DNA of 64,000 nt from Candidatus Rariloculaceae bacterium (GTDB lineage Bacteria; Pseudomonadota; Gammaproteobacteria; Steroidobacterales; Rariloculaceae), in assembly GCA_965237785.1 (NCBI GenBank), contig OZ250159.1:455989-519988 (forward strand), read 5' to 3'. Numbering within the stretch: position 1 is the stretch's first letter; the number at the start of each line of letters is the position of its first letter. Under the pieces are notes generated by a model, which was not told where the DNA came from, made no database searches, and saw nothing but the letters and a program-made list of their open reading frames with translations. Positions 28,769-57,678 of the stretch are shown piece after piece. The translations under genes and the position numbers were made by a program.

Positions 28769-29345
28769 TCAAGGGTTTTGGTCCGACGCCGGCCGATACA
28801 CGAACTCGTCCTCCGAGAGAACCAGCTTGCGCAGGCGCGCGTTGGTGAACTCCTGATTCGTTGTTGCGGTTTGGAGAACGTCCCTGAACGCCGGCAGCTC
28901 GGTGAACCGCGCGGTGAACGGCTCGAACGTGGTCGCGCTCGCCTCGACCACGGGACCGAAGGTACTGGTGCCCGTTTTGTGCCTCAGCTTGAACGCGTAT
29001 TCGGTACTCGAGGCGAGGTTCGGGACCTCGTACTGGTTGCCATTGGGCTCGCTCGGCCTGCTCAGGGGAATTTCCGTCCAGGCACCGAACGATCCGCCGC
29101 TCGCCGCGACTTGGTACTCGATGTCCGAACGGTCGGGGCGACCCCGGAATACCCAGGACAGCACCACGCTGTTGTGCGTCGGGTCGGCGGCGGCACGGTT
29201 GGGAGCGGGTGCCGCCTCGTCTTCCTCGATCGCGACCGTGCTGGAGAGAATGTCCACGACCGCGGTCGTGGTACCCGAAAGCGTCACGCGTCGGTCGCCG
29301 GTGTAGGTGTCGTCCGAAATCCGCGTCGCGAAGTACCGGCACGGC
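28769..29345 (-). pseudogene. orphan 5'-truncated fragment of an adhesin passenger (Fn3-containing), paralog of the middle of 32573..35338
   Basis: DDTYTGDRRVTLSGTTTAVVD...PTHNSVVLSWVF...GGSFGAWTEIP...YEVPNLASSTEYAFKLRHK...ATTFEPFTARFTELPAF aligns with NSDTYTGDRSVTLSGASAEDVD...PTHNSAVLSWRF...YEVPNLASSTEYAFKLRYK...ATTFEPFTARFTDLPAF. There is no signal peptide and no beta-barrel. Confidence 0.75.
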
Positions 29346-29392: not shown

Positions 29393-32300
29393 CTACCAGC
29401 GCACCGAGCCCTGAAGCCGGAACGCGTCCTCGGCCATGCCGCGCGTGCCCGTGCGCCGGCCGAGCTCGAGCCCCGCCTCGAGGTTCGCGCCCGAAGTGAG
29501 TTTCAGGCCCATCCGGTACGCCTGTTGCCCGGCCGAGGATTCGGTGGCGAAGAACGGGACCCAGAGCGCGCGGCCCTTGCGTCCCTCGAGACCGTAGCCG
29601 AGCTGGGCGTGGAACCGCTGTGCCGTATCCATCGCCGCGCCCCGCGGGGCAAGCCCCGAGGCATCGGCCCGCGACCACAGCCCCTGTACGCCGCTCTGCG
29701 TCGCGCCCCAGCTCGAACCCACGTCCATCGCCCAGCCTCGTCCGTCCGGGTTGGGCTGCCACCTGAGGGCGGTACTGAACCCCCATTCCTCGTACTCCGC
29801 ATCCTCGTGCGCGAGCAACCCCCGCACGTTGAGCTCGACCGACAGCCGCCCGGCCGACCAGGCCAGTCCGCCGCCGATCTCGATACCCGCGCCCGTCTCC
29901 GCGTCGCCGCCGTCGTACCTCACGCCCGCCTCGAGCGTCGGGCGCAACACCGCGCCGTTCGGGAGCGGCATGGATCCGGAACCTTCCAGCATCAGCCGCA
30001 CGCGGCTCGACGCGCCCTCGGCGCCCATCAGACCCGTCGCGGCCTCGGACACTGTGTTCGTGAACAACGCGTCGGACACCACCGCCAGCTTCAACCCGCC
30101 CGCGCGGCGGGAAAATACGCCCCGCCCGCCGAACGCCGCCATGGTGGATTCGAGGCCCGTCTCGATCGCGTCGTCGGCGCGCTTGCTTTGAAGACTCAGA
30201 TCGCCCACGCCGTAACCGACCGCGCCCCACAGGCTCAACCGCTCGTTGAGCGTGAAGTTCGCGTACGGGTTGATGCTCGTCAGGCGGCTCGTCACATCGC
30301 CGCCCGCGGCGGTGGCATGGCTGTAACCGCCTTCGCCGAAGCTGTGGGACACCGCCACGCCCGCCAGCCACCGGCCCCACTGGGCGTCGGCGCCGACGGT
30401 GGCCGTGGCCACGGCTCCGTCGATCGAAAGCTCCCCGTCGGCACCGCTGAACCGGATCTCCGCCGCCCGGCCCCAGGCCGTCCAGCTTGAAAGTCCGTTC
30501 CGCGTCTCCGTCCCGTCCGCAAGCGTTCGCGAGTAATCAAACGAACTGCCTATGAGCAGCGCCCGCCAGTCGTCGCGTCCCCTCGACAGCAGGTCCGCGA
30601 ACGGCCGCGCCGCGGACAACAGTCCTGCGGACGACAGTCCCGCCGGCAGCACGCCCGCGGACGACAGTCCGGCGGACACCAGATTCTCGAGTCCCGCGCG
30701 TGCCGCGGACGGCAGTCCTGCAGACGGCACGCCTGTGCTCGGCGGCGCCGCGGGCGACAGTCCTGCGGACGGCAGTCCCGCGTCGTTCGATCCTGAAGGC
30801 GACGCGCCTGAAGACGAAAAACCCGTGGGCGCCGGTCCGCCCATCCGCGGCGTCCCGCCCGCGGACTCGCCCCCTGCAAGCCCAATGCCGCCGCCTGCAA
30901 GCCCGCTGCCTACAAGGCCAGTGCCGCCCGGCGCGGTCCCCCAACGCATGGATTCCGCTTTGAGGCGGTCCATGCGCTCCCAGGCCGACTCGTCCTCAAG
31001 ACGCCTGTCCGGCGCGGCCCGGTCCCCGGTCTCCTTCGCATCGGCGCCCCGGGCGGCGTTGCGGAAGTCGTCGAACAGTTGGTCCACGCGCCGTCCGCCC
31101 ACCGTGAAGTGGTTGTCCGCCGAGCGCCGCGGCCCGCCGGCGAGCCGTTCGCGGATCGCATCGACCGTCTGAACCGATGCCGTTCGCCCGAACCGCGCCA
31201 GCCACGCCTTCGGCATCGGGTCGGAATTCACGATCGTGCCCGTCGCCTCGGCGTCGGCCAGGTACGCGTTGCCGCCCGCGGCGTTCGAGAGCCTCAGCGT
31301 CAGGGTCTGCTCGCCCTCGTCGTGGCCGTCGTCGAGCACCGCCACCGACACCGTCTTCGACGTCTCGCCCACGAGGAACGTCAGCGTGCCGGAGTCCGGC
31401 TCGTAGTCCTCGTCCGCCGTCGCCGTCCCGTCCGCGGTCGCGTAGCCCACGCTCACCGTCTCCGGCGACGCCCGTGCGAGCGTCACCGCGAAGTCGAGCG
31501 TCGCGTTTTCCTCGGCCTCGTCCACGCGCGCATCGGCCACCGAGAGTCCCCGCGGCCCGAGGATCGTCTCCGACACTTCGTTCGCGAGCACCTCGCCGTC
31601 CGCGGTGCACACCGCGCCGGTGTCGGTGCAGAGCGAGAACGGCCCGATGGAGACCGTCACGTCCTCCTCCGACCCCGGCGCGACCCTGACCTCCCACCGG
31701 TCGTTGTGCGGCGGGTTGAGGCGCCGCACCTCCGGCGTGAGCCGCGTCTGCCCGCCCCGGCGTATGTTCAGGGTGCTGCCGCGCAGCGTCGTGTAGCTGT
31801 AGTCCGCATGCGGCTCCTTCGTGAACTCGACCGTGAACACGATCTCGCCCGTCCCGGCGTGCTCGTCGGGAAAGCCCACCAGCCGGACCCGCAACGGCGC
31901 CGCCTCCTGCACCGCCTCCGGCACCGTCTCCGCGCTCGGCTCCCCGGCGCCCGGCGCCGCGGTCGGCTCCGTGGCGTCATGGCGCAGATCCGCCGCGATC
32001 CCCGACGCCAGCGACACGATGTCCACTCCGTTCGACGCCATGGCATTCGCCGCGATCGCGACCTCGCTGAAGTAAAGCGTCCTTGCAAGCGCCACCCACG
32101 CGAACACGAGCGTGTCGCTGCCCGAGCCCGATGTGTATCCGACCAGCGCCGTGTGTCCCTTGACCGTGAGCTTGATGACGGGAATGAGGTCGGTGATCGT
32201 CACCGCGAGCGGCTCGTTGAACGTGACATGCACCTCGAACGTCTCGTTCGCAATCCATTCCAGGGCGCCGGGGTCGTCCGGCGTGATTGCGATCCCGGTC

Positions 32301-32566
32301 ACATAGGGTGCGACGGCGAAGCCGAGCTCGACGTCGTTCCCGCGGGCGTCGAGGATCCGCGCGCCGCCGGTTGCCAATCCGTTTGCCGCCACGCGCGCCC
32401 GCCGCGCGCCTTCGTCCCCGGCCGTCGCGGTGTAGCTGAACGTCAGGGTATCGGTGCCCGATCCGCCGCTATAGGCGGCCATGCGTGGCGTGCCGCCGAG
32501 CACGATCTTGAGTGTCGGCCCGGCGTCCGGCGCTCCGTCGACGGTCACGGTTTCGGTGAAGCGCAC
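29393..32566 (-). CDS. autotransporter adhesin, C-terminal portion (Calx-beta, linker, autotransporter beta-barrel); no signal peptide of its own
   Basis: Calx-beta block VADARVDEAEENATLDFAVTL...ATADGTATADEDYEPDSGTLTF...VLDDGHDEGEQTLTLRL (~31230-31545). Junction NSDPMPKAWLARFGRT. ~300-aa beta-barrel ending RLQGSVRW. Lies in frame with the upstream ORF, separated by one TAG. Confidence 0.85.
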   Translation of the reverse strand: MRFTETVTVDGAPDAGPTLKIVLGGTPRMAAYSGGSGTDTLTFSYTATAGDEGARRARVAANGLATGGARILDARGNDVELGFAVAPYVTGIAITPDDPGALEWIANETFEVHVTFNEPLAVTITDLIPVIKLTVKGHTALVGYTSGSGSDTLVFAWVALARTLYFSEVAIAANAMASNGVDIVSLASGIAADLRHDATEPTAAPGAGEPSAETVPEAVQEAAPLRVRLVGFPDEHAGTGEIVFTVEFTKEPHADYSYTTLRGSTLNIRRGGQTRLTPEVRRLNPPHNDRWEVRVAPGSEEDVTVSIGPFSLCTDTGAVCTADGEVLANEVSETILGPRGLSVADARVDEAEENATLDFAVTLARASPETVSVGYATADGTATADEDYEPDSGTLTFLVGETSKTVSVAVLDDGHDEGEQTLTLRLSNAAGGNAYLADAEATGTIVNSDPMPKAWLARFGRTASVQTVDAIRERLAGGPRRSADNHFTVGGRRVDQLFDDFRNAARGADAKETGDRAAPDRRLEDESAWERMDRLKAESMRWGTAPGGTGLVGSGLAGGGIGLAGGESAGGTPRMGGPAPTGFSSSGASPSGSNDAGLPSAGLSPAAPPSTGVPSAGLPSAARAGLENLVSAGLSSAGVLPAGLSSAGLLSAARPFADLLSRGRDDWRALLIGSSFDYSRTLADGTETRNGLSSWTAWGRAAEIRFSGADGELSIDGAVATATVGADAQWGRWLAGVAVSHSFGEGGYSHATAAGGDVTSRLTSINPYANFTLNERLSLWGAVGYGVGDLSLQSKRADDAIETGLESTMAAFGGRGVFSRRAGGLKLAVVSDALFTNTVSEAATGLMGAEGASSRVRLMLEGSGSMPLPNGAVLRPTLEAGVRYDGGDAETGAGIEIGGGLAWSAGRLSVELNVRGLLAHEDAEYEEWGFSTALRWQPNPDGRGWAMDVGSSWGATQSGVQGLWSRADASGLAPRGAAMDTAQRFHAQLGYGLEGRKGRALWVPFFATESSAGQQAYRMGLKLTSGANLEAGLELGRRTGTRGMAEDAFRLQGSVRW

Positions 32567-32572
32567 CTGCGC

Positions 32573-35338
32573 CTAGACGGTTTCGCCCTCGTTCCACACC
32601 CCGTCCTCGCCGGGCCCGGAGGTCACGCCCGCACCGCCCGCCGTCACCTCGACGCTCCCCGGCAGTCCCGTGTCGAACGCCGGCGCGCCGTAGACCGGTA
32701 CCGTGACGGACGCGCCCTGCGTCAGCGGATGCAAGGCAGCACTGCAGATACGAGCGGTCTCGTCCGGCGCGCAGCGAAGCTGTGGAGGCTGCTCGGCGTT
32801 GACCCCGACGGTCACCTCCGTTGCGCCCGAGTCCGGACGAATTGTCAGGTTCCAGGCGCGCCCCTGGCCTTGGCCCGCCCGCGCGAGTCGTTCATAGGTT
32901 CCGCCCTGAACGACGACCTGGCTCGTATGCTCGTGATGCAGCCCTTCGAAGCGCAGAAGATCCGCGCTGAACACGACCGTTACCTCGAATGCCTCACCGG
33001 GCAGGAAATGTGTCGGCGGATCCTCCAATTCGACGGTGTACTCGGACAGCGTCGTCACGTCGGCGGATCTCGCGACGCTCACGATGTCCGTTCCGGCCCT
33101 GGCGCGGACTTCGAACGTGTAGGCCGTCTGCTTCGCAAGCCCGGACACCAGGAAGCCTGAATGGTTCGCCCCGCCCACGCCGCTGTCGGGGACGTCCTGC
33201 CAATCGGGCGCGGTTCCGGTGCGCCAGTACCGGTACTGGTAGGTGTGCGCCGCCGCGTTCACGGACGGGTCCCAGCTCAATCGGACCGCCTCGGGTCCCG
33301 GAGTCGCCTCGAAATCGTCCGGCGCCAGCAATCCCACATCGTCTTCCTCGATTTCAAGCTCCACGCGGCCGGTCTCGGAATCCAGCGCGACGTGCCCTTC
33401 GGAGGGCGTTCCCGCGGCGATCGCGATGCGCCTGTTCCCGGTGGCTTCGCCGTTGTCGCGCGCGGTCAGCGCGATCGCGTTCGAATCCCGCGAGCCGGCG
33501 GGAATCGTGAGCCGCGTCCCGGAGGCTTCAACGTCGCCCGCCTCATCCGTGATTTGAACGTCGACGTACACGTCCACGTCGCTCGTTTCGTTGACCGGAT
33601 CGGTTTCCCGGCTTCTGGGCTTGTAAAGCCTGGCGGTCAGGTTCGCGACGCCGCCGTTTTCGGAGATCGACGCGGTGTCCAGGGCCAGCCGGACCTCCCT
33701 CCTCGCCCTGACGATGCCCGTGACGTCCTCGCTGAGGGGCCGCAGGTCGGCACTGCAGAGCTTCCGTATCGGGGCGGAGCTGGCTTCGGCCTCCGTGCAC
33801 CTCACCTTGGGTCCGTCCGGCGCCTTCAGGGTGATCGCGACCGACGTGGTGTCGGCCATGGCCCGGAGCTCCATCCAGAAGCTGTCCGGGTCGCGTCCGT
33901 CATCACGGCCCACGTAGACGGCGCCGTCGACCTCGACCAGGCCGTGACGGGGGCCCAATGCCCTGCTGGTGCGCAATGCGCTGCTGTACTCCCCCGTCAC
34001 GGTGAACAACTGATCCGATCTTGCGGTTGAGCGAGTGTCGCTGAACGCCGGCAGGTCGGTGAACCGCGCGGTGAACGGCTCGAACGTGGTCGCGCCCGCC
34101 TCGACCTCGGGGCCGGGACTGTTGTCCCTCTTGTATCTCAGCTTGAACGCGTACTCGGTACTCGAGGCGAGGTTCGGGACCTCGTACCGGCTGCCGTGGC
34201 TCTGGTACGGCCTGCTCTGGGGAATTTCCGTCCAGGCACCGAACGATCCGCCGTTCGCCGAGAGCCGGTACTCGACGACCGAAGTGCGGGGTCGATACGG
34301 GAATCTCCAGGACAGCACCGCGCTGTTGTGCGTCGGGTTGGTCTCGAGACCGGACGGATCCTCGTCCTCCTCGATCACGACCGTGCTGGAGGGAATGTCC
34401 ACGTCCTCGGCCGAGGCGCCGGAAAGGGTCACGCTTCGGTCGCCGGTGTAGGTGTCGCTGTTCACCGCGGTGAGGGTGACCGTACCGGTACTCGTCGTCT
34501 CGCCGGCGGCGAACGAGAGCGTGGTGTTGGCACTCAGCGTAAAGTCCGATGCCGTGGCGGGAGCATGAGGAGAAAACGCCACATCCACCGTAAATTCCGT
34601 GTCCAACGCCGGACCCACGGTTCCGGTAACCGTCGCCATACCGCCGTCCTGGGTGATGTTTCGAGGGGTCGCACGCAGCGTGACAACGGAATTGCTTCCC
34701 ACCCGTGTCCCCAAAACCTTCATCTTCATTACATCGTCTCTGGTCCCCCACCGATATCCAGTCCGTTTCCAATAGCTATTATCTGCAATCGACCAATAAT
34801 CCAGTTGCGTTTCACGATCGCTGTCAGTGGCATCTATCGTGAACCAACGCAGGGTTCCCGGGTTGTCGAGCCTGAATTGAACTACATAGTCCGTATTGGG
34901 CAAGAGCGTCCTGCTCTCCTCGGATGTACCGTCGACAGGAAAAAAGCTCATGGCGCCGCCGGCGCCGATGTACGTCCCATACGACGTCGGAATTGTAAAA
35001 TCCAGAATCTTTTTTCCGAGCGGGTTCCTGGCGTTGCCGAACAAATGGAGCGATGCCTCCAAATTCTCTCCGTCTATTTTTTCGTAGTCGACCCAAACGA
35101 ATTCCACCGATGACAGCTTGTAGCCATCCCTTGCGTCCCCGGTGGTAAAAAGCTGCGCCCCTCGTTGGTTGTAGCTCTTGGTGGAGCTTGGATGTTGCTC
35201 TTCCCTGCCCACCTCGGGTCGCGCATCCATCCGTTGGTTCATATTGCTGACGAATGTAATGTCTTCCTGACCTTGAACGGCCGCGGAACCCAGTGACACC
35301 GCGATGACGAGCAAGCCGGGAGTGAATTTGGCGAGCAT
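32573..35338 (-). CDS. autotransporter adhesin, N-terminal portion (signal peptide plus passenger: N-terminal domain, Fn3 x2, beta-sandwich modules); ends at an in-frame TAG
   Basis: Signal peptide MLAKFTPGLLVIAVSLGSAAVQGQ. Fn3-like blocks (PTHNSAVLSWRF...YAFKLRY; AVRLSWDPS...YTFEVRA). The stop TAG 32573-32575 is followed 6 nt later, in frame, by ORF 29393..32566. Confidence 0.85.
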   Translation of the reverse strand: MLAKFTPGLLVIAVSLGSAAVQGQEDITFVSNMNQRMDARPEVGREEQHPSSTKSYNQRGAQLFTTGDARDGYKLSSVEFVWVDYEKIDGENLEASLHLFGNARNPLGKKILDFTIPTSYGTYIGAGGAMSFFPVDGTSEESRTLLPNTDYVVQFRLDNPGTLRWFTIDATDSDRETQLDYWSIADNSYWKRTGYRWGTRDDVMKMKVLGTRVGSNSVVTLRATPRNITQDGGMATVTGTVGPALDTEFTVDVAFSPHAPATASDFTLSANTTLSFAAGETTSTGTVTLTAVNSDTYTGDRSVTLSGASAEDVDIPSSTVVIEEDEDPSGLETNPTHNSAVLSWRFPYRPRTSVVEYRLSANGGSFGAWTEIPQSRPYQSHGSRYEVPNLASSTEYAFKLRYKRDNSPGPEVEAGATTFEPFTARFTDLPAFSDTRSTARSDQLFTVTGEYSSALRTSRALGPRHGLVEVDGAVYVGRDDGRDPDSFWMELRAMADTTSVAITLKAPDGPKVRCTEAEASSAPIRKLCSADLRPLSEDVTGIVRARREVRLALDTASISENGGVANLTARLYKPRSRETDPVNETSDVDVYVDVQITDEAGDVEASGTRLTIPAGSRDSNAIALTARDNGEATGNRRIAIAAGTPSEGHVALDSETGRVELEIEEDDVGLLAPDDFEATPGPEAVRLSWDPSVNAAAHTYQYRYWRTGTAPDWQDVPDSGVGGANHSGFLVSGLAKQTAYTFEVRARAGTDIVSVARSADVTTLSEYTVELEDPPTHFLPGEAFEVTVVFSADLLRFEGLHHEHTSQVVVQGGTYERLARAGQGQGRAWNLTIRPDSGATEVTVGVNAEQPPQLRCAPDETARICSAALHPLTQGASVTVPVYGAPAFDTGLPGSVEVTAGGAGVTSGPGEDGVWNEGETV

Positions 35339-35432: not shown

Positions 35433-38400
35433 TCACCAGCGCACCGAGCCCTGCAGCCGCAACGCTGCCTCGGCCACGCCGCGCGTGCCCGTTCGCCGGC
35501 CGAGCTCGAGCCCCGCCTCGAGGTTCGCGCCCGACGTGAGCTTCACGCCCATCCGCAAGGCCCGTTGCCCGGCGGAAGCTTCCGTGCCGAGGAACGGCAC
35601 CCAGAGCGCGCGGCCCCTGCGTCCCTCAAGGCCGTAGCCGAGCTCGGCGTGCAACCGCCGGGCGGCATCCATCCCTGCGCCCCGGGCGATTCCCGAGGCG
35701 TCCTGGCGGCTCCACAGCGCGTTCACGCCGCTTGCGGTGTCGCCCCAGCTCGAACCCGCGTCCATCGCCCAGCCGCGCCCGTCCTCGTTGGGCTGCCACT
35801 TCACCGATCCGCTGAACCCCCATTCCTCGTACGCGGCGTCCTCGTGCGCGACAAGCCCCCGCACGTTGACCTCGACCGACACCCGCCCGGCCGTGTAGGC
35901 CACTCCGCCGCCGAGCTCCACACCGGCGCCCGTCTCGGCGTCCCCGCCGTCGTAGCGCAGCCCCGCCTCGAGCGTCGGGCGCAGCACCGCGCCGTTCGAA
36001 AGCGCCATGGATCCCGAACCTTCAAGCATCAGCCGCACGCGGCTCGACGCGCCCTCGGCGCCCATCAGACCCGTCGCGGCCTCGGACACCGTGTTCGTGA
36101 AGAGCGCGTCGGACACGACCGCGAGCTCCAACCCGCCCCCGCGGCGGGAAAACACGCCCCGCCCGCCGAACGCCGCCAGAGCGGATTCAAGACCCGTCCC
36201 GATCGCGTCGTCGGCGCGCTCGCTCCGAAGAGCGAGATCGCCCACGCCGTAACCGACCGCGCCCCACAGGCTCAACCGCTCGTTGAGCGTGAAGTTCGCG
36301 TACGGGTTGACGCTCGTCAGACGGCTCGTCAGTTCGCCGCCGGCGCCGGCGCTTGCATGGCTGTAGGCGCCCTCGCCGAAACTGTGCGACACCGCCACGC
36401 CCGCCAGCCACCGGCCCCACCGGGCGTCGGCGCCGACGGTGGCCGTGGCCACCTCGCCGTCGATCGAAAGCTTCCCGTCGGCGCCGCTGAACCGCGTCTC
36501 CGCCGCCCGGCCCCAGGCCGACCAGCTTGCAAGCCCGTTCGCGGTCCCCGCCCCGTCGTCCAGCGTTCGCGAGTAATCGAACGAACTGCCCATGAGCAGC
36601 GCCCGCCAGTCCTCGCGCCCCCTCGACAGCAGATCCGCGAACGGCCGGGCCGTGGACAGCAGTCCGGCGGACGACAGTCCCGCCGGCAGCACGCCCGCGG
36701 ACGACAGCCCGGCGGACACCAGATCTTCGAGTCCCGCGCGTGCTGCCGACGGCAGTCCTGCGGACGCCAGTTCTGCGGACGCCAGTCCTGCGTCGTTCGA
36801 TCCTGAACGCGACGCGCCTGAAGACGACAAGCCCGTGGGCGCCGGTCCGCCCATCCGCGGGGCCCCGCCCGCGGACCCGCCCGCCGCAAGCCCGATGCTG
36901 CCGGGCGTCGCCCACCAGCCCATGGATTCGGCCTTGAGCCGGTCCATGCGCTCCCAGGCCGATTCGTCCTCAAGGCGCCTGTCCGGCGCGGCCCGGTCCG
37001 CGGTCTCCTTCGCATTGCCGCCCCGGGCGGCGCTGCGCAACTCGTTCAACAGTTGATCCACGCGCCGTCCGCCCACCGTGAACTGGTTTTCCTCGGGCCG
37101 GCGCGGCCCGCCGGTGAGCCGCTCGCGGATCGCATCGACCGTCTGAACCGACGAGGTGCGACCGAACCGCGCCAGCCACGCCTTCGGCATGGGGTCGGAG
37201 TTGTTGATGGTGCCCGTCGCCTTGCCGTCGGCGATGGTTGCGCCGGAAGGGTTGGAGAGCGTCATCGTCAGGGTCTCCGCGCCCTCGTCGTGGCTGTCGT
37301 CCAGCACCGCGATGGAGACGATCCTTCGCTGCTGCCCGCGGGCGAAGGTGAGCGTGCCGCTGCGCGAGTGGTAGTCCTGGCCCGCGGTCGCGGGATTCGC
37401 GCCGGCGCCGTCCGCGGTCGCGTAGTCCACCGTGACCGTGGTGCTCGGCGCCCGGTTCAGCGTGACCGCGAAGTCGAGCAGCGTCGCGTCGTTCTCCTTC
37501 TCGTCCACCGACGCGTCCGCCACCGAGAGTGCCGGCGGCGGTGGGCCTTCCTCAACGGCTTCCTCCTCTACGGGGTCATCCTCGGCCGGGTCATCCTCGG
37601 CCGCGTCGTCCTCGGCCGGGTCGTCCTCGGCCGGATCATCCTCAGCCGGGTCATCCTCAACCGGGTCGTCCTCGGCCGCGTCACCCTCGGCCGGCTCCCG
37701 GTCCGTGTCGGCTCCGCTCGCGGAGTCGCCCGGAGCCTCATCCTCGCGGTTCAGGATCGTCCCCGTCGCCCGGTCGTCGCCGATTTGCGCGCCCCTGGCC
37801 TCGTAGAGGTGAAAGTAAAACGTCTCGCCGCTGTCCTTGTCCTCATCGTCCACGATCGGCACCTCGACGATTTTCCGCCACTCGCCGGCGGCAAAGGTCA
37901 GCGTGCCCGTGGTCTCCTCGTAGTCCGCTCTCACCGTCGCCGTGCCGGACGACGTGTAGTACCGCACCGTCACCTCCCCGGCGGCCGCCGGCGACAGCCT
38001 CACCGCGAACCGGATCGCCGGGTTCGTCCCTTCCCGGCCCTCGGCGTCCGCCACCGACAACGCCGGCGTCGTCCCCACCGGGTCCGCCACGATCCGGCTG
38101 AACTCCGCCACGTGGGGCACGGAGTGCCATTTTCCCGCGGCCCGCAGGTTGTCCGATTCTTCGTACGACTTCCAGTAGCTGACCGAGACGGTCTCGCCGT
38201 CCGACGGCCCGTCGTACTCCGTCCCCCCGCGTATCACCGGGTTCAACGTGAGCCGCACGATCCGGCAGGCCTGGCCGTTGGACGTGCAGGCGCTCCCATT
38301 GCGCGCCTGCACGATCTCGGTCAGGTTCACGCTGTTCGCGGCCAGGGTGTCTGGAAGACCGGCCGGCGCCGATTCCGAATAATGCACCCCGAACTGCGGC

Positions 38401-41400
38401 GTCAGTTTGTTGTGGCGCGCAACGCCCGTATCGAGGTCGCGGTCGAAGAAGATCCAGACCTTGTCGCCATGGCGCTCGATGCGCTCGACCTCGGGCGCGC
38501 CCCGGTTCGAACCCTGGCCCGTCCCGCCGACGTTGTACACCGTCGTCCACGGCCCCGGGCCGCGCTCGTTCTCCCAACGCACCCGCACGTCGTAGGCCTG
38601 CCCGGCCGCGACGTCGAAGATGACGTCGCTGTCGCGTCCGGTGCGCTTCTGGCCGCGCCAGCCCTCCCTCTCGCCGGGCGATGCCCACGCCTTGCCGGCG
38701 CGCTGCCACTGGATGCGGTAGTCGACGCCCACCGGGTCCAGGTCGAAGTTCACCCGCAGGTCCGGCTGCGCGTTCCCGTTGTAATCGATCGGTTCCACCG
38801 TGACGTGCCCCGGCGCCTCCGGCGGCCCGGTCACCCCGCGCACCGTGAGGGTCAGGCGCTTCGACAGCCCGTTCGACCCCGCGCACATCGCGCCCGCGCC
38901 GGGACACGGCAGCGGCTGGACCCTCACGGTCACGTCTTCCGTGCCCGTCGGCGTCAGCTCCATCCGAATGCGGTGGTACGCCGTGTCGATGAAGCGCACG
39001 GTGGCGCCGGTCACCCGCAGCGCCCCGTTCGGCCCGAGCCACTGGTCCGGGGCCGGGCCACGCGCGCATACCGTGAATGACGAGAGGCTCTGGTACTGCT
39101 CCCAGGTGAGTGGCTGGCACCGCTCAGTCAGCAACACGTAGTCGCCCGCCCGCCGGAACTGCACCGCGAGCTGGAACGGCTCGCCGAAGTGGATGTCCGG
39201 CAGGGGACCGCCCCACCCGGCCACGTCGTCCGCGCCGCCTCTCACCGCCGTGAAATGGGCGTCGATCGAGCCGAAGGAGCCCTCGTCGTCCGTGACCGTA
39301 ACCTCCACGTCGCCCGCCGTCACCCCGTTGTAGTTCGCGCCCCTCACCCGGTGGCTGACCGTGGCGAGGTCGTCCTCGTCGTCCGCGTCATGGTCCGCCG
39401 ACACCGTCACGTCCTGCGGCTCGGCCCAGTTCATGGCCGTGAAGGTCAGCGCAGCCGATACCCTCACTTCGGCGTTGTCCACCACCCGCGGCGTCACCGT
39501 CACCGGTCCCGTGGGCGGCGCCTTCAATACGACCGTGTAGGTCGCCTCGGCGCCCTCGTCGACCGCCAGCGACGTCGCGCTCAGCGTCACGCCCGCGGCG
39601 GTGGCGGTGGCGCCCGAACCGGGTTCCGACCACTCGCTGTCGGTCTCGCCGTTCAGCGCCCGCACCCGCACCTGGTAGCTGGTGTCCGCGGACAGGCCCG
39701 TGATCGGCGCGCTCGTGCCGGTGACGTTCTGCGGGCCGTCCATGAAGTCGTCGCCGGTGCCCGGGCGGTATTGCAGGTCGTAGCCTGCGATGTCCGGGCC
39801 GCCGTTCAGACCCGGTTTCGTCCAGGTCACCTCCAGGCTCGTGGTCGAGCCCGGCGTCGCGCCCACCGACGGCGCCGCCGGCGTCTCCGGCTGCTCGTCC
39901 GCGTCGGTCACGTTGATCGTCACGGCGATGCTTTCGGCGCCGCCGTTGCCGTCGGAGACCGAAACCGTCACCGCGTAGCTGGACTTCGCCTCGAAATTCA
40001 ACGCCGCCTTGGTCCGGAGCTGCCCGGAGGTCGAGACCATGGCGAAGGCCGCGGCGTCCGTCCCGCCCAGGGTGTAGGTCAGCGTGTCGCCCGTGTCCGT
40101 ATCCGCGGCCGCGACACGATCCCCGATATCGGCGCCCGCCGCCGTGTTCTCGGCCACGCTGCGCGTGGCGCTCGCGCCCTCGGTGAAGGTCGGGGCATTG
40201 TTGGCGGGCGACCCGGTGTTGCCGGTTCCCGACGGGGACCACTCGCTGGGGGTCTCGCCGTTCAGCGCCCGGACCTGCACCTGGTACCTGGTGGCCGCGT
40301 TCAGGCCCGTGATCGGCGCGCTCGTGCCGGTGACGTTCTGCGGGCCGTCCATGAAGTCGCCGCTGGTGCCAGGGCGGTATTGCAGGTCGTAGCCGGCGAT
40401 GGCCGGGCCGCCGTTCAGCCCCGGCGCGGTCCAGCTCACCGTCAGGCTGGCGGTGGTTCCGGCGGTGGCGCTGACGTCCGGCGCGGCGGGCCTCGCCGGC
40501 TGCTCGTCCGCGTCGGTCACGTTGATCGTCACGGCGATGCTGTCGGCGCCGCCGTTGCCGTCGGAGACCGAAACCGTCACCGCGTAGCTGGACTTCGCCT
40601 CGAAATTCAGCGCCGCCTTGGTCCGGAGCTGGCCGGAGGTCGAGACCATGGCGAAGGCCGCGGCGTCCGTCCCGCCCAGGGTGTAGGTCAGCGTGTCGCC
40701 CGTGTCCGTATCCGCGGCCGCGACACGATCCCCGATATCGGCGCCCGCCGCCGTGTTCTCGGCGACGCTGCGCGTGGCGCTCGCGCCCTCGGTGAAGGTC
40801 GGGGCATTGTTGGCGGGGTCAACCGTCCCGCTCAAGGGATAGGCCGCGCTGGTCAGTGCCTCGTCGTTGCCCTCGTTATCCTGGAAGCTGACCCGCACCT
40901 TGATCTTCTTGCCCTCGTCGTCCGCCACCAGCGCGTAGGTGTACAAGTCTGTCCCGATGTTCACCGGGTTCGTCCCGTCCGCATTCACCCGGACCCACTG
41001 CAAGGTGTAGTCGTCCGGGAAGGTGTCCGGCAGCCCGTCGGTGTCGGCGATGTTGTCGATCGCCGCGGTCAGCGTCTCCCCGACCCGCGCCGTGCCGGAT
41101 ATCGCCGGCGCCCCGGTGGCGGGGTTGTTGGCCACGCCAACCGTTGCGGTGCCCGACGGGTATGGCTCGCTGGTCACTTCCTCGTCGGCGCCACCCTTGT
41201 CCTGGAAGCTCACCTCCACCTTGATCTTCTTGCCCACGTCGGCCGCCACCAGCGCGTAGGTGTACAAGTCTGTCCCGATGTTCACCGGGTTCGTATCGTC
41301 CGCATTCACCCGGACCCACTGGAAGGTGTAGTCGTCCGGGAAGGTGTCCGGCAGCATGTCGGTGTCGGCGATGTTGCCGATCGCCGCGGTCAGCGTCTCG

Positions 41401-41675
41401 CCGGCCCGCGCCGTCCCGGATATGGCCGGCGCGCCGGTGGCGAAGTTGTTGTCCACGCCAACCGTCCCGCTCGCGGGATAGGCGGCACTGGTCACTTCCT
41501 CGTCGGCGCCGCCCTTGTCCTGGAAGCTCACCTCCACCTTGATCTTCTTGCCCACGTCGGCCGCCACCAGCGCGTAGGTGTACAAGTCTGTCCCGATGTT
41601 CACCGGGTTCGTATCGTCCGCATTCACCCGGACCCACTGGAAGGTGTAGTCGTCCGGGAAGGTGTCCGGCAGCAT
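35433..41675 (-). CDS. giant adhesin, C-terminal segment (Ig-like repeats, cadherin-Fn3 x2, Calx-beta x2, autotransporter beta-barrel)
   Basis: The apparent ATG 41675 is an internal Met of the repeat (…DTDMLPDTF…). Contains NAPTFTEGASATRSVAENTAAGADIG...DTDTGDTLTYTL (cadherin-like), Fn3 (LTVSWTAPGLNGGPAIAGYDLQYR), two Calx-beta blocks, NSDPMPKAWLARFGRT, and a barrel ending LQGSVRW. Confidence 0.88.
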   Translation of the reverse strand: MLPDTFPDDYTFQWVRVNADDTNPVNIGTDLYTYALVAADVGKKIKVEVSFQDKGGADEEVTSAAYPASGTVGVDNNFATGAPAISGTARAGETLTAAIGNIADTDMLPDTFPDDYTFQWVRVNADDTNPVNIGTDLYTYALVAADVGKKIKVEVSFQDKGGADEEVTSEPYPSGTATVGVANNPATGAPAISGTARVGETLTAAIDNIADTDGLPDTFPDDYTLQWVRVNADGTNPVNIGTDLYTYALVADDEGKKIKVRVSFQDNEGNDEALTSAAYPLSGTVDPANNAPTFTEGASATRSVAENTAAGADIGDRVAAADTDTGDTLTYTLGGTDAAAFAMVSTSGQLRTKAALNFEAKSSYAVTVSVSDGNGGADSIAVTINVTDADEQPARPAAPDVSATAGTTASLTVSWTAPGLNGGPAIAGYDLQYRPGTSGDFMDGPQNVTGTSAPITGLNAATRYQVQVRALNGETPSEWSPSGTGNTGSPANNAPTFTEGASATRSVAENTAAGADIGDRVAAADTDTGDTLTYTLGGTDAAAFAMVSTSGQLRTKAALNFEAKSSYAVTVSVSDGNGGAESIAVTINVTDADEQPETPAAPSVGATPGSTTSLEVTWTKPGLNGGPDIAGYDLQYRPGTGDDFMDGPQNVTGTSAPITGLSADTSYQVRVRALNGETDSEWSEPGSGATATAAGVTLSATSLAVDEGAEATYTVVLKAPPTGPVTVTPRVVDNAEVRVSAALTFTAMNWAEPQDVTVSADHDADDEDDLATVSHRVRGANYNGVTAGDVEVTVTDDEGSFGSIDAHFTAVRGGADDVAGWGGPLPDIHFGEPFQLAVQFRRAGDYVLLTERCQPLTWEQYQSLSSFTVCARGPAPDQWLGPNGALRVTGATVRFIDTAYHRIRMELTPTGTEDVTVRVQPLPCPGAGAMCAGSNGLSKRLTLTVRGVTGPPEAPGHVTVEPIDYNGNAQPDLRVNFDLDPVGVDYRIQWQRAGKAWASPGEREGWRGQKRTGRDSDVIFDVAAGQAYDVRVRWENERGPGPWTTVYNVGGTGQGSNRGAPEVERIERHGDKVWIFFDRDLDTGVARHNKLTPQFGVHYSESAPAGLPDTLAANSVNLTEIVQARNGSACTSNGQACRIVRLTLNPVIRGGTEYDGPSDGETVSVSYWKSYEESDNLRAAGKWHSVPHVAEFSRIVADPVGTTPALSVADAEGREGTNPAIRFAVRLSPAAAGEVTVRYYTSSGTATVRADYEETTGTLTFAAGEWRKIVEVPIVDDEDKDSGETFYFHLYEARGAQIGDDRATGTILNREDEAPGDSASGADTDREPAEGDAAEDDPVEDDPAEDDPAEDDPAEDDAAEDDPAEDDPVEEEAVEEGPPPPALSVADASVDEKENDATLLDFAVTLNRAPSTTVTVDYATADGAGANPATAGQDYHSRSGTLTFARGQQRRIVSIAVLDDSHDEGAETLTMTLSNPSGATIADGKATGTINNSDPMPKAWLARFGRTSSVQTVDAIRERLTGGPRRPEENQFTVGGRRVDQLLNELRSAARGGNAKETADRAAPDRRLEDESAWERMDRLKAESMGWWATPGSIGLAAGGSAGGAPRMGGPAPTGLSSSGASRSGSNDAGLASAELASAGLPSAARAGLEDLVSAGLSSAGVLPAGLSSAGLLSTARPFADLLSRGREDWRALLMGSSFDYSRTLDDGAGTANGLASWSAWGRAAETRFSGADGKLSIDGEVATATVGADARWGRWLAGVAVSHSFGEGAYSHASAGAGGELTSRLTSVNPYANFTLNERLSLWGAVGYGVGDLALRSERADDAIGTGLESALAAFGGRGVFSRRGGGLELAVVSDALFTNTVSEAATGLMGAEGASSRVRLMLEGSGSMALSNGAVLRPTLEAGLRYDGGDAETGAGVELGGGVAYTAGRVSVEVNVRGLVAHEDAAYEEWGFSGSVKWQPNEDGRGWAMDAGSSWGDTASGVNALWSRQDASGIARGAGMDAARRLHAELGYGLEGRRGRALWVPFLGTEASAGQRALRMGVKLTSGANLEAGLELGRRTGTRGVAEAALRLQGSVRW
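37566..37695 (-). repeat. 15-nt in-frame tandem repeat encoding an acidic (A/V)EDDP spacer
   Basis: ggccgggtcatcctc / ggccgcgtcgtcctc / ggccgggtcgtcctc / ggccggatcatcctc / agccgggtcatcctc / aaccgggtcgtcctc... It translates as DAAEDDPVEDDPAEDDPAEDDPAEDDAAEDDPAEDDPVEE. Confidence 0.9.
39600..40817 (-). repeat. 609-nt tandem duplication (cadherin-like plus Fn3 pair x2)
   Basis: The sequence gaaaccgtcaccgcgtagctggacttcgcctcgaaattca... at 39961 recurs at 40570 (offset 609). The cadherin halves are near-identical and the Fn3 halves are more diverged. Confidence 0.9.
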
Positions 41676-44600
41676 CGTCGGTGTCGGCGATGTTGCCGAT
41701 CGCCGCGGTCAGCGTCTCGCCGGCCCGCGCCGTCCCGGATATCGCCGGCGCGCCGGTGGCGGGGTTGTTGGCGGCGGCCACCGTTGCGGTGCCCGACGGG
41801 TATGGCTCGCTGGTCACTTCCTCGTCGTTGCCGTCGTCGTCCTGGAAGCTCACCTCCACCTTGATCTTCTTGCCCACGTCGGCCGCGACCAGCGCGTAGG
41901 TGCCGGAGTCTGTCCCGATGTTCACCGGGTTCGTCCCGTCCGCGTCCACCCGGACCCACTGCAAGGTGTAGTCGTCCGGGAAGGTGGCCGGCAGCCCGTC
42001 GGCGTCGGCGATGGTGTCTTTCGCCGCGGTCAGCGTCTCGCCGGCCCGCGCCGTCCCGGATATCGCCGGCGCGCCGGTGGCGGGGTTGTTGGCGGCGGCC
42101 ACCGTTGCGGTGCCCGACGGGTATGGCTCGCTGGTCACTTCCTCGTCGTTGCCGTCGTCGTCCTGGAAGCTGACCTCCACCTTGATCTTCTTGCCCACGT
42201 CGGCCGCGACCAGCGCGTAGGTGCCGGAGTCCGTCCCGATGTTCACCGGGTTCGTCCCGTCCGCGTCCACCCGGACCCACTGCAAGGTGTAGTCGTCCGG
42301 GAAGGTGGCGGGCAGCCCGTCGGCGTCGGCGATGGTGTCTTTCGCCGCGGTCAGCGTCTCGCCGGCCCGCGCCGTCCCGGATATCGCCGGCGCGCCGGTG
42401 GCGGGGTTGTTGGCGGCGGCCACCGTTGCGGTGCCCGACGGGTATGGCTCGCTGGTCACTTCCTCGTCGTTGCCGTCGTCGTCCTGGAAGCTCACCTCCA
42501 CCTTGATCTTCTTGCCCACGTCGGCCGCGACCAGCGCGTAGGTGCCGGAGTCTGTCCCGATGTTCACCGGGTTCGTCCCGTCCGCGTCCACCCGGACCCA
42601 CTGCAAGGTGTAGTCGTCCGGGAAGGTGGCGGGCAGCCCGTCGGCGTCGGCGATGGTGTCTTTCGCCGCGGTCAGCGTCTCGCCGGCCCGCGCCGTCCCG
42701 GATATCGCCGGCGCGCCGGTGGCGGGGTTGTTGGCGACGCCAACCGTTGCGGTGCCCGACGGGTATGGCTCGCTGGTCACTTCCTCGTCGTTGCCGTCGT
42801 CGTCCTGGAAGCTGACCCGCACCTTGATCTTCTTGCCCTCGTCCGCCGCGACCAGCATGTAGGTGCTTGAGTCCGTCCCGATGTCGACCGAGTTCGACTC
42901 GCCGTCCGCGTCCACCCGGACCCACTGCAAGGTGTAGTCGTCCGGGAAGGTGTCCGGCAGCCCGTCGGCGTCGGCGATGGTGTCTTTCGCCGCGGTCAGC
43001 GTCTCGCCGGCCCGCGCCGTCCCGGATATCGCCGGCGCGCCGGTGGCGGGGTTGTTGGCGGCGGCCACCGTTGCGGTGCCCGACGGGTATGGCTCGCTGG
43101 TCACTTCCTCGTCGTTGCCGTCGTCGTCCTGGAAGCTCACCTCCACCTTGATCTTCTTGCCCACGTCGGCCGCGACCAGCGCGTAGGTGCCGGAGTCCGT
43201 CCCGATGTTCACCGGGTTCGTCCCGTCCGCGTCCACCCGGACCCACTGCAAGGTGTAGTCGTCCGGGAAGGTGGCGGGCAGCCCGTCGGCGTCGGCGATG
43301 GTGTCTTTCGCCGCGGTCAGCGTCTCGCCGGCCCGCGCCGTCCCGGATATCGCCGGCGCGCCGGTGGCGGGGTTGTTGGCGGCGGCCACCGTTGCGGTGC
43401 CCGACGGGTATGGCTCGCTGGTCACTTCCTCGTCGTTGCCGTCGTCGTCCTGGAAGCTCACCTCCACCTTGATCTTCTTGCCCACGTCGGCCGCGACCAG
43501 CGCGTAGGTGCCGGAGTCCGTCCCGATGTCGACCGAGTTCGACTCGCCGTCCGCGTCCACCCGGACCCACTGCAAGGTGTAGTCGTCCGGGAAGGTGGCC
43601 GGCAGCCCGTCGGCGTCGGCGATGGTGTCTTTCGCCGCGGTCAGCGTCTCCCCGACCCGCGCCGTGCCGGAAATCGCCGGGACGCCGGTGGCGGGGTTGT
43701 TGGCGACGCCAACCGTTGCGGTGCCCGACGGGTATGGCTCGCTGGTCACTTCCTCGTCGTTGCCGTCGTCGTCCTGGAAGCTGACCTCCACCTTGATCTT
43801 CTTGCCCACGTCGGCCGCCACCAGCGCGTAGGTGTACAAGTCTGTCCCGATGTTCACCGGGTTCGTCCCGTCCGCGTCCACCCGGACCCACTGCAAGGTG
43901 TAGTCGTCCGGGAAGGTGGCCGGCAGCCCGTCGGCGTCGGCGATGGTGTCTTTCGCCGCGGTCAGCGTCTCCCCGACCCGCGCCGTGCCGGAAATCGCCG
44001 GGACGCCGGTGGCGGGGTTGTTGGCGACGCCAACCGTTGCGGTGCCCGACGGGTATGGCTCGCTGGTCACTTCCTCGTCGTTGCCGTCGTCGTCCTGGAA
44101 GCTGACCTCCACCTTGATCTTCTTGCCCACGTCGGCCGCCACCAGCGCGTAGGTGTACAAGTCTGTCCCGATGTTCACCGGGTTCGTCCCGTCCGCGTCC
44201 ACCCGGACCCACTGCAAGGTGTAGTCGTCCGGGAAGGTGGCGGGCAGCCCGTCGGTGTCCTCGATGCTGCCCCGCGCCGCGGTCAGCGTCTCCCCGACCC
44301 GCGCCGTGCCGGAAATCGCCGGGACGCCGGTGGCGGGGTTGTTGGCGGCGGCCACGGCGAGGGAAACCTTCACCCTGTCGCCTTCGTTCCAGGAGAGCCC
44401 GGCGGCGTCGAATGCGAACACAAGCTGGCTGCCGAGGCCGGCGGTGAAGGTGAAGGTTTCGGAGCCGAGGGTGAGGGCGAGCTCCTCGCTGCCCAGCAGC
44501 CCGTCGGCAGGGGTGGTGCCGGAGATGCGGCGTATCTGGAGACTGAGCTGCCCGCCCGTGCCACTGTTGTAGGCGACGTAGGGGACGCCGACGACGGCGG

Positions 44601-47600
44601 TGCCGCGGGTAAAGCTGTCGGGGGAGAGCGAGCCGATGTCGACGGGAGGTAAATCGCTGTAGCCGTAAAGGGTGCTGAGGTTCCCGACGGTGAGGGTGGC
44701 GCACCACAGGACCTCGCAGGCCTCCGCCACTGTTTCCATCCCCGAGGGATAGGCGGCGCCGGTCAGTGCCTCGTCGTTGCCCTCGTTATCCTGGAAGCTG
44801 ACCCGCACCTTGATCTTCTTGCCCTCGTCCGCCGCGACCAGCATGTAGGTGCTTGAGTCCGTCCCGATGTCGACCGAGTTCGACTCGCCGTCCGCGTCCA
44901 CCCGGACCCACTGCAAGGTGTAGTCGTCCGGGAAGGTGGCCGGCAGCCCGTCGGCGTCGGCGATGTTGTCTTTCGCCGCGGTCAGCGTCTCGCCGGCCCG
45001 CGCCGTCCCGGATATCGCCGGCGCGCCGGTGGCGGGGTTGTTGGCGACGCCAACCGTTGCGGTGCCCGACGGGTATGGCTCGCTGGTCACTTCCTCGTCG
45101 TTGCCGTCGTCGTCCTGGAAGCTGACCCGCACCTTGATCTTCTTGCCCTCGTCCGCCGCGACCAGCATGTAGGTGCTTGAGTCCGTCCCGATGTCGACCG
45201 AGTTCGACTCGCCGTCCGCGTCCACCCGGACCCACTGCAAGGTGTAGTCGTCCGGGAAGGTGTCCGGCAGCCCGTCGGCGTCGGCGATGGTGTCTTTCGC
45301 CGCGGTCAGCGTCTCGCCGGCCCGCGCCGTCCCGGATATCGCCGGCGCGCCGGTGGCGGGGTTGTTGGCGGCGGCCACCGTTGCGGTGCCCGACGGGTAT
45401 GGCTCGCTGGTCACTTCCTCGTCGTTGCCGTCGTCGTCCTGGAAGCTCACCTCCACCTTGATCTTCTTGCCCACGTCGGCCGCGACCAGCGCGTAGGTGC
45501 CGGAGTCCGTCCCGATGTTCACCGGGTTCGTCCCGTCCGCGTCCACCCGGACCCACTGCAAGGTGTAGTCGTCCGGGAAGGTGGCCGGCAGCCCGTCGGC
45601 GTCGGCGATGGTGTCTTTCGCCGCGGTCAGCGTCTCGCCGGCCCGCGCCGTCCCGGATATCGCCGGCGCGCCGGTGGCGGGGTTGTTGGCGGCGGCCACC
45701 GTTGCGGTGCCCGACGGGTATGGCTCGCTGGTCACTTCCTCGTCGTTGCCGTCGTCGTCCTGGAAGCTCACCTCCACCTTGATCTTCTTGCCCACGTCGG
45801 CCGCGACCAGCGCGTAGGTGCCGGAGTCCGTCCCGATGTTCACCGGGTTCGACTCGCCGTCCGCGTCCACCCGGACCCACTGCAAGGTGTAGTCGTCCGG
45901 GAAGGTGGCCGGCAGCCCGTCGGCGTCGGCGATGGTGTCTTTCGCCGCGGTCAGCGTCTCCCCGGCCCGCGCCGTGCCGGATATCGCCGGCGCGCCGGTG
46001 GCGGGGTTGTTGGCGGCGCCAACCGTTGCGGTGCCCGACGGGTATGGCTCGCTGGTCACTTCCTCGTCGTTGCCGTCGTCGTCCTGGAAGCTGACCTCCA
46101 CCTTGATCTTCTTGCCCACGTCCGCCGCGACCAGCGCGTAGGTGCTTGAGTCCGTCCCGATGTCGACCGAGTTCGACTCGCCGTCCGCGTCCACCCGGAC
46201 CCACTGCAAGGTGTAGTCGTCCGGGAAGGTGGCGGGCAGCCCGTCGGCGTCGGCGATGGTGTCTTTCGCCGCGGTCAGCGTCTCGCCGGCCCGCGCCGTG
46301 CCGGATATCGCCGGCGCGCCGGTGGCGGGGTTGTTGGCGGCGCCAACCGTTGCGGTGCCCGACGGGTATGGCTCGCTGGTCACTTCCTCGTCGTTGCCGT
46401 CGTCGTCCTGGAAGCTGACCTCCACCTTGATCTTCTTGCCCACGTCGGCCGCCACCAGCGCGTAGGTGTACAAGTCTGTCCCGATGTTCACCGGGTTCGT
46501 CCCGTCCGCGTCCACCCGGACCCACTGCAAGGTGTAGTCGTCCGGGAAGGTGGCCGGCAGCCCGTCGGCGTCGGCGATGGTGTCTTTCGCCGCGGTCAGC
46601 GTCTCGCCGGCCCGCGCCGTGCCGGATATCGCCGGCGCGCCGGTGGCGGGGTTGTTGGCGGCGGCCACGGCGAGGGAAACCTTCACCCTGTCGCCTTCGT
46701 TCCAGGAGAGCCCGGCGGCGTCGAATGCGAACACAAGCTGGCTGCCGAGGCCGGCGGTGAAGGTGAAGGTTTCGGAGCCGAGGGTGAGGGCGAGCTCCTC
46801 GCTGCCCAGCAGCCCGTCGGCAGGGGTGGTGCCGGAGATGCGGCGTATCTGGAGACTGAGCTGCCCGCCCGTGCCACTGTTGTAGGCGACGTAGGGGACG
46901 CCGACGACGGCGGTGCCGCGGGTGAAGCTGTCGGGGGAGAGCGAGCCGATGTCGACGGGAGGTAAATCGCTGTAGCCGTAGAGGGTGCTGAGGTTCCCGA
47001 CGGTGAGGGTGGCGCACCACAGGACCTCGCAGGCCTCCGCCACTGTTTCCATCCCCGAGGGATAGGCGGCGCCGGTCAGTGCCTCGTCGTTGCCCTCGTT
47101 ATCCTGGAAGCTGACCCGCACCTTGATCTTCTTGCCCTCGTCCGCCGCGACCAGCATGTAGGTGCTTGAGTCCGTCCCGATGTCGACCGAGTTCGACTCG
47201 CCGTCCGCGTCCACCCGGACCCACTGCAAGGTGTAGTCGTCCGGGAAGGTGGCGGGCAGCCCGTCGGTGTCGGCGATGGTGTCTTTCGCCGCGGTCAGCG
47301 TCTCCCCGGCCCGCGCCGTCCCGGATATCGCCGGCGCGCCGGTGGCGGGGTTGTTGGCGGCGGCCACCGTTGCGGTGCCCGACGGGTATGGCTCGCTGGT
47401 CACTTCCTCGTCGTTGCCGTCGTCGTCCTGGAAGCTGACCTCCACCTTGATCTTCTTGCCCACGTCCGCCGCGACCAGCGCGTAGGTGCTTGAGTCCGTC
47501 CCGATGTCGACCGGGTTCGACTCGCCGTCCGCGTCCACCCGGACCCACTGCAAGGTGTAGTCGTCCGGGAAGGTGGCCGGCAGCCCGTCGGCGTCGGCGA

Positions 47601-50600: not shown

Positions 50601-51060
50601 TGGAAGGTGTAGTCGTCCGGGAAGTTGGCGGGCAGCCCGTCGGTGTCGGCGATGTTGCCCTGCCCGGCGGTCAGATCTTCGCGCACCTGCGCCGTGCCCG
50701 TGATCGCCGGGGCGCCCGTGGCGGCGTTGTTGGCAGCGGCGACCACGCCCGTGGCCGCGCTGGTGAGCGACTCGGCGTTGCCGTCGTCGTCCTGGAAGCT
50801 GGCCCGGACCTTGATCGTCTTGCCCTCGTCAGCGTCCACCAGCGTGTAGGTGCTTGACGTAGCGCCCGATATATCAGCAGGGTTCGAGCTGCCGTCCGCA
50901 TCGAGCCGGATCCACTGGTAGGTGTAGCTCACGTTGGTAAGCCCGTCCATGTCCATGATGCCGGTGGTGGCCGCGGTGAGTTCCTGGCCTACCTGCGCGG
51001 TGCCGGTGATGGTGGGGGCGCCGGTGGCGTTGGCGCTGTCCACCTCGGTGACGGTTACCG
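40820..51060 (-). repeat. coding tandem array: ~27 contiguous copies of a 321/324-nt unit interspersed with four 378-nt modules
   Basis: The periodic antisense ORFs in the ORF track start 321 or 324 nt apart (41984, 42305, 42626, 42950, 43271, 43595, 43916, 44237; 44936...46550; 47249...48588; 49287...49932). The steps are 699 nt across each inserted module. Many units are near-identical at nucleotide level. Confidence 0.95.
41677..47952 (-). CDS. giant adhesin, central repeat segment (in-frame part of ORF-track ORF 40876..48060)
   Basis: About 18 copies of the ~107/108-aa repeat ANNPATGAPAISGTARAGETLTAAKDTIADADGLPATFPDDYTLQWVRVDADG...GKKIKVEVSFQDDDGNDEEVTSEPYPSGTATV, plus 2 copies of a 126-aa Cys-containing module. 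Both ends of the ORF-track ORF are out-of-frame read-through. Confidence 0.85.
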
Positions 51061-57655: not shown

Positions 57656-57678
57656 CAACTTGAGAATCGGCCCGGTAT

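Follow-up and report, generated by a model that had tools for sequence, protein, structure and literature searches.

An amber codon interrupting the frame of a surface-protein gene in an uncultured marine gammaproteobacterium: a probable recent nonsense pseudogene

The window analyzed here, a stretch of 64,000 nucleotides (nt) from the genome of an uncultured marine gammaproteobacterium (G000:C1:455989-519988), carries on its minus strand a reading frame of 1,982 codons (35338..29393, in window coordinates) with the layout of an outer-membrane surface protein and a TAG in place of codon 922. Does this amber codon destroy the gene, is it read through, does it part two working genes, or is it an error of the assembly? 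The initial annotation of the locus had left three options, namely a recent nonsense pseudogene, a sequencing error, and stop-codon readthrough or suppression used as an expression valve. We propose that the gene is very probably a recent GAG-to-TAG nonsense pseudogene, as the position holds a sense codon in the homologues within a conserved domain, the stop is present in the DNA, and a close relative keeps the sense codon. The genome is a single contig of 4.39 Mb with 61% G+C and a completeness score of 100%. Its relatives are metagenome-assembled genomes labelled Candidatus Foliamicus sp., Candidatus Rariloculaceae bacterium or Gammaproteobacteria bacterium, and a literature search with the name 'Foliamicus' turned up no papers.

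The interrupted gene and its domains

Around the stop the minus strand reads GGC GAA ACC GTC TAG GCG CAG GTG CGC TTC ACC, with the translation ...WNEGETV*AQVRFTETVTV... (asterisk, stop). This is the sole internal stop, in agreement with the earlier description of one in-frame TAG splitting a frame of ~1,980 codons, and the open reading frames (ORFs) given for the two parts, 32573..35338 and 29393..32566, are as listed among the ORFs of the window. The gene comprises the following features.

32573..32575, minus strand: in-frame TAG, codon 922 of 1,982, with no other stop inside the frame 35338..29393
32576..35338, minus strand: upstream half, 921 codons, with a signal-peptide-like leader, an N-terminal module and two fn3-like domains parted by Cys-pair modules
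35270..35338, minus strand: predicted Sec signal peptide MLAKFTPGLLVIAVSLGSAAVQG, codons 1-23, the only one of the gene, read from the sequence
33092..33325, minus strand: fn3 domain (Pfam PF00041), residues 672-749 of the upstream half
32319..32644, minus strand: X1 cassette, 326 nt, encoding the immunoglobulin-like (Ig-like) domain X1 that holds the TAG
29393..32572, minus strand: downstream half, 1,059 sense codons and the terminal stop, with the rest of X1, the domain X2, a Cys-pair module, a Calx-beta domain, a helical/low-complexity linker and the C-terminal barrel
31223..31546, minus strand: Calx-beta domain (Pfam PF03160, E=1.3e-17)
29396..30595, minus strand: C-terminal outer-membrane beta-barrel domain, last 400 residues, ending in ...LQGSVRW (AlphaFold2, Foldseek)

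The upstream half, in which Pfam finds fn3 at E=7.5e-12, begins with a leader (residues 1-23) with Lys as its fourth residue, a core of hydrophobic residues, and small residues ahead of the predicted cleavage point. This leader aligns with those of the homologues P0108 and P0011 and of the giant neighbour gene. The downstream ORF starts with VRFTETV... and has neither a hydrophobic leader nor an export signal of its own, and the barrel occupies the last ~380 residues of the frame. The claim that the only signal peptide lies upstream of the stop and the only barrel downstream of it is thus borne out.

The stop itself falls ~19 residues into X1, a beta-sandwich, away from a domain boundary. Within the family X1 is always followed by the second domain X2 (...GPGxNGxWDxGETVEAEVRFS...APYVTxVAL...), and the nearest comparison for the interrupted domain is ...GETVEAEVRFS... 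/ ...GETVEAQVRFS... in P0005, P0007 and P0049. The initial annotation had placed the stop inside a recognisable domain and held that neither half could function alone, and both statements are supported; the domain that it quoted for comparison, YGVGETIRFTVTF, is however more distant and a poorer match than these sequences.

A search with the read-through translation yielded 648 relatives, nearly all of 1,100-3,400 amino acids. The stop column is covered by the best alignments of 118 homologous proteins, and all 118 have a sense residue there (E in 51, V in 12, T and D in 11 each, R in 10, and others). Alignment with the intact homologue P0108 (2,023 amino acids) revealed a single collinear match that begins in the leader at residue 9, crosses the stop column (GETVAVEVAF) and extends to residue 1264, the upstream half being collinear with P0108 residues 1-930. 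Since an intact homologue is collinear across the stop and the column is sense throughout, the two ORFs are not a chance juxtaposition. Judged from these alignments, 35338..29393 was formerly one gene for an outer-membrane surface protein of ~1,981 residues.

The two halves might still have been kept as two working genes, with the 921-residue fragment serving as a periplasmic or secreted protein or the downstream part being re-initiated at a GTG. Such a GTG (32566) stands 6 nt after the stop with a weak AGG upstream, both ORFs are listed by gene callers, and both halves bear the mark of past purifying selection. An exact look-up of the 921-residue upstream product gave no match. However, the break lies 19 residues into a beta-sandwich domain and not at a boundary, and the downstream product is devoid of a signal peptide, so that its barrel cannot reach the outer membrane. 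In addition, the two-gene arrangement is absent among the 648 family matches and the cluster members read, save for one near-identical haplotype, and the selection signal is older than the stop. We consider a functional split very unlikely.

Origin and age of the stop

Three related assemblies were reached through the homology search and the cluster of the upstream product, among them L023 (ENA ERZ26167216, ctg466411_7.25x_l), a separately assembled contig, and L024 (ERZ25766727, ctg337012_3x_l). Also used for comparison is L021 (ENA ERZ25766727, ctg362301_18x_l), which together with L022 represents the sister-lineage ortholog P0002. JGI metagenome contigs, scanned for the junction pattern with the stop codon set to NNN, gave 0 matches, and the species-representative genomes of the genus, family and order held no close ortholog, only domain matches of 30-40%.

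Comparison of the window with L023, which matches positions 43389-25000 at 98.5%, revealed 99.8% identity over the gene, with 11 substitutions and one 1-nt deletion. The same TAG is found in L023 inside a context of 93 identical nt, and the downstream half is identical between the two; the 1,057-residue product of the downstream ORF is likewise recorded on two contigs. If the T were a consensus error and the true codon sense, the G that the related contig L024 has at this site and the indels that differ between assemblies of the region would fit. Yet L023 is a distinct haplotype built from different reads, separately assembled and differing at 12 other positions in the gene, and it has the identical TAG, which makes a consensus error very unlikely. 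L024, for its part, differs at 58 further substitution sites and is thus another strain, not the same molecule read correctly; its frame-breaking indels are changes of homopolymer length and not substitutions; and the genome of the window is complete in a single contig. The probability of an assembly or sequencing artefact is very low. The sequencing-error option is effectively refuted by the separately assembled contig, and the comparison of assemblies indicates that the TAG is a true feature of the DNA.

The 11 substitutions that set L023 apart from the window are unevenly spread, nine of them falling within 240 nt (window 32954-33191, codons 716-795). Such a cluster is more suggestive of a short tract of gene conversion than of point mutations arising here and there. 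Over the 3.2 kb downstream of the TAG the two sequences show no substitutions.

The ancestral state of codon 922 is revealed by L024. This haplotype is ~99% identical to the gene; the differences amount to 59 substitutions, one deletion of 27 nt that keeps the frame, and eight 1-nt indels, all of the homopolymer-length kind typical of a 3x consensus. Its codon 922 is GAG (Glu), which constitutes the sole substitution in nt 2700-2830 of the gene. As GAG encodes the consensus Glu of the family, the TAG is derived, by a single-base change. Orthologs had been proposed in the initial annotation as a check for a sense codon at this position, and both the 118 homologues and L024 have one.

The two sides of the stop have been under similar constraint. 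Synonymous and non-synonymous substitutions against L024 number 8 and 9 upstream of the stop and 22 and 19 downstream. The ratio of non-synonymous to synonymous rates (dN/dS) against L021 is 0.50 for the N part, upstream, and 0.34 for X2 and 0.39 for the C part, both downstream. No second lesion is found in the 1,059 codons downstream of the stop. Equal past constraint on both sides, together with the lack of any later downstream lesion, indicates that the TAG mutation is young. The nonsense-pseudogene option is thus favoured by the GAG of the ~99% identical haplotype and by the like selection pattern on both sides, and also by the broken neighbours and sister ortholog described below.

Some observations weigh against this view. 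The downstream half is fully open and identical in two haplotypes, which is expected of a young lesion and is also compatible with residual function. The base calls of L024 are less secure, given its 3x depth and eight homopolymer-length indels, although its G agrees with the family consensus. Lastly, the haplotypes with the TAG are 99.8% identical, so that the shared stop is real, but no proof of long persistence.

TAG as an ordinary terminator

None of the 63 tRNA and tmRNA genes listed by Aragorn has a CUA anticodon; a tRNA-Sec, which reads UGA, is present in the genome. RF1 was found at 511 bits, above its curated cut-off, and there is no PylS in the genome, the PylS_Cterm model giving only a 23-bit cross-hit against a cut-off of 178. 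TAG terminates 793 of the 2,421 frames (about a third) at which a coding-like signal in the G+C content of third codon positions (GC3) ends. The underlying genome-wide GC3 scan for in-frame stops was not discriminating and returned mostly adjacent same-frame genes, and only its tally of terminating stops is used here; it did not flag the codon-922 TAG at either threshold. Folding of the 151-nt RNA around the TAG, mostly downstream of it, gave a z-score of -0.27, and 76 of 200 shuffled sequences did as well or better. This organism uses TAG as an ordinary stop codon. That TAG should predominate among nonsense lesions is moreover expected, because one-step nonsense paths in a GC3-rich gene mostly give TAG: 296 of 500 such paths do so in this gene (59%) and 331 of 486 in its neighbour (68%). 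A like count for ORF D, possibly made in the wrong frame, is set aside.

These results bear on the idea of a leaky stop acting as an expression valve, by which occasional near-cognate readthrough would supply a little tolerated full-length adhesin and most ribosomes would stop. The intactness of the 1,059 downstream codons, identical in two haplotypes, and the occurrence of the TAG allele in two assemblies would suit such a valve. Against it stand the lack of a suppressor or pyrrolysine tRNA and of PylS, the presence of RF1, the common use of TAG as a terminator in the genome, and the lack of a stable RNA structure downstream of the stop. Nor is the stop conserved beyond the 99.8% identical haplotype, as the ~99% identical haplotype has GAG, the homologues have a sense codon in 118 of 118 cases and the cassette with the stop is absent from L021; in addition, lesions of other kinds, unrelated to this one, have disrupted the ortholog and the neighbouring genes of the family. 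The readthrough or suppression option of the initial annotation finds no support, and we regard a leaky valve as highly improbable. Slightly less probable still is an amber that is tolerated or favoured because background near-cognate readthrough yields a trickle of the ~210-kDa adhesin as a crude dosage valve. If true, this would hold down the dosage of a surface protein that is costly or immunogenic, in a bacterium associated with a host, with the polymorphism kept beside the GAG allele of a co-occurring strain.

For the nonsense pseudogene we propose the following course of events. The ancestral gene encoded a Sec leader, followed by a passenger built of fn3, Ig-like and Calx-beta modules and, at the C-terminus, a membrane barrel. 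A recent single-base substitution changed a Glu codon, GAG, to TAG within the opening beta-strand of one of the Ig-like domains of the passenger. Translation would now end after codon 921, and the leader-bearing fragment may enter the periplasm, with no barrel for crossing the outer membrane. The 1,059 downstream codons, devoid of an export signal, would be translated rarely or never, at best by re-initiation in the cytoplasm. The full-length surface protein would be lost, leaving a young pseudogene; we infer this loss because RF1 is present and a suppressor is absent.

Among the tRNA genes of the genome, 14 form a compact array of 1.3 kb (genome C1:2196614-2197906), several of which duplicate tRNAs found elsewhere in the genome. 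The array could be a mobile-element or phage-derived tRNA island.

The gene cluster, the barrel and related systems

The interrupted gene belongs to a tandem cluster, of which a further family gene lies in the window, together with a passenger relic.

35433..57600, minus strand: giant family gene of ~7,400 codons, assembled from the ORFs 47957..58069, 40876..48060 and 35433..41675 by GC3 frame plot, translations and repeat alignment
28844..29326, minus strand: orphan passenger relic just downstream of the interrupted gene, homologous to residues ~290-446 of the upstream half

The giant neighbour shows two frame breaks within near-identical tandem repeats, a complex insertion of ~45 nt at ~48090 and one extra base at ~41676. 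L023 is without the extra base at ~41676 and has frame-breaking indels of its own at ~37912, 37887 and 37606, and repeat numbers differ between strains. On this comparison of assembled sequences, the indels of this region are strain-specific or not reproducible between assemblies. A third family gene lies beyond the window (genome C1:513670-536803, minus strand), with its leader-bearing N part at 536014 and its barrel at 513670, and undergoes 4-5 switches of coding frame within 2.5 kb (genome 527750-525200). All three tandem genes of the cluster are thus disrupted; paralogues farther off in the genome (3.88, 3.96, 4.03 and 0.61 Mb) seem undamaged and have leaders. The passenger relic is 63% identical over 161 amino acids in tblastn and 82-87% identical in blastn, and three barrel relics are found elsewhere in the genome. 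In the sister lineage (L021:5745-10007, and the same in L022) the ortholog is disrupted twice, near codon 45 by a tandem duplication of 23 nt and after about codon 299 by the insertion of an element of the IS21 family (istA/istB, on the opposite strand); tandem tyrosine-integrase genes follow a few kb downstream.

The family members are mosaics. At the DNA level the interrupted gene matches a paralogue at a distance of 45 kb (genome 535221-533294) with 87.7% identity over window 34560-32645, and the next gene with 82.8% over window 31556-29395. For the DNA between 32645 and 31556 no match was found elsewhere in the genome, nor was a donor of the TAG-bearing cassette found there at this level. 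Alignment with the L021/L022 ortholog gave 97.2% identity up to window 32645, then the 326-nt cassette, then 96.5%. At the cassette site L021 has instead a 542-nt segment of cadherin and fn3 (L021:11810-12351), which is 80% identical to a paralogue, and the flanks on both sides are 96-98% identical to L021. This precise replacement between conserved flanks indicates that domains are swapped as cassettes. The tandem cluster, made up of giant adhesin genes that are mosaic and recombine, is being eroded in this lineage.

The class of the protein was addressed through its barrel. An AlphaFold2 model of the last 400 residues from an 11-sequence alignment has a pLDDT of 76, a pTM of 0.64 and about 18 strands. 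The barrel domain measures ~380 residues, and its strand count is provisional, the model being of moderate confidence. As regards an alpha-helical linker threading the pore, the model places ahead of the barrel only a helix of residues 10-14 and a strand of residues 18-24, both short and of low pLDDT. Foldseek matched only outer-membrane barrels, the top ones being 22-strand TonB-dependent receptors, with a TM-score normalized to the query (TMq) of 0.44-0.48. The 12-strand barrel of BrkA gave a TMq of 0.37 and a target-normalized score (TMt) of 0.55-0.57, and covers about a third of the model. In Pfam, PF03797 gave no match even at E<=10 and OMP_b-brl alone was found (E=0.0027); no autotransporter model of NCBIfam matched, and a PDB sequence-profile search with the barrel alignment returned nothing meaningful. 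Paralogous barrels are 83% and 69% identical.

With type Va autotransporters (EspP, NalP, BrkA; PF03797) the protein shares a predicted N-terminal Sec signal peptide, a long modular passenger, a C-terminal barrel and an aromatic last residue (W), and the beta domains of BrkA, NalP and EspP are among the Foldseek matches. Type Va barrels, in contrast, have 12 strands in ~270 residues, against the about 18 predicted strands in ~380 residues found here. Classical type Va membership was rejected, as no 12-strand translocator matching PF03797 was found. The autotransporter label of the initial annotation stands with regard to the C-terminal outer-membrane barrel, but not with regard to the Pfam Autotransporter family, which is not matched, or the strand number. 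With leader, passenger and C-terminal outer-membrane barrel strung on a single chain, the protein would work like an autotransporter, and the predicted model raises the possibility of a variant of type V-like secretion that has a larger barrel.

Rickettsia sca autotransporter genes are split and truncated, and surface-adhesin pseudogenes are found in host-associated bacteria undergoing gene decay. As in such decaying adhesin and autotransporter pseudogenes, one lesion has struck one member of a multi-copy family with leader, passenger and C-terminal barrel, the frame is open downstream, and different members or strains carry different lesions (stop, frameshift, insertion of an IS element, deletion relic). 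Unlike the Rickettsia sca genes, those described here belong to an uncultured marine gammaproteobacterium and have Calx-beta, fn3 and cadherin passengers and a larger barrel. Amber recoding by a suppressor tRNA or by pyrrolysine resembles the present case in its in-frame UAG and an open homologous frame on either side, but differs in that there is no tRNA-CUA, no PylS and no stimulatory RNA structure, RF1 is present and the stop is unconserved. The tandem Ig-like domains of the family, its cassette exchange between paralogues and its differences in repeat number between strains recall 'periscope'-type and giant RTX-like adhesins, whereas the lesion in this gene is a simple base substitution and not a switch mediated by repeats.

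Nonsense pseudogenes in families of surface adhesins are well known, and the present locus adds a new, well-documented instance, for which a co-occurring strain still has the ancestral allele. It offers mainly a clean negative, in that an eye-catching amber in a giant gene would represent, instead of recoding, a nonsense allele that is young and of population level. In addition, it exposes a giant Calx-beta/fn3/cadherin surface-protein cluster that is eroded by different lesions in different strains and whose paralogues exchange domains as cassettes. Substitutions were reproducible across these long-read metagenome assemblies and single-base indels were not, which helps in judging other broken genes of the genome.

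Elsewhere in the window, a gene for an MBL-fold protein has a reported in-frame TAG at 25511-25513, which lies within a 66-mer (window 25480-25545) identical in L023, an independent assembly.

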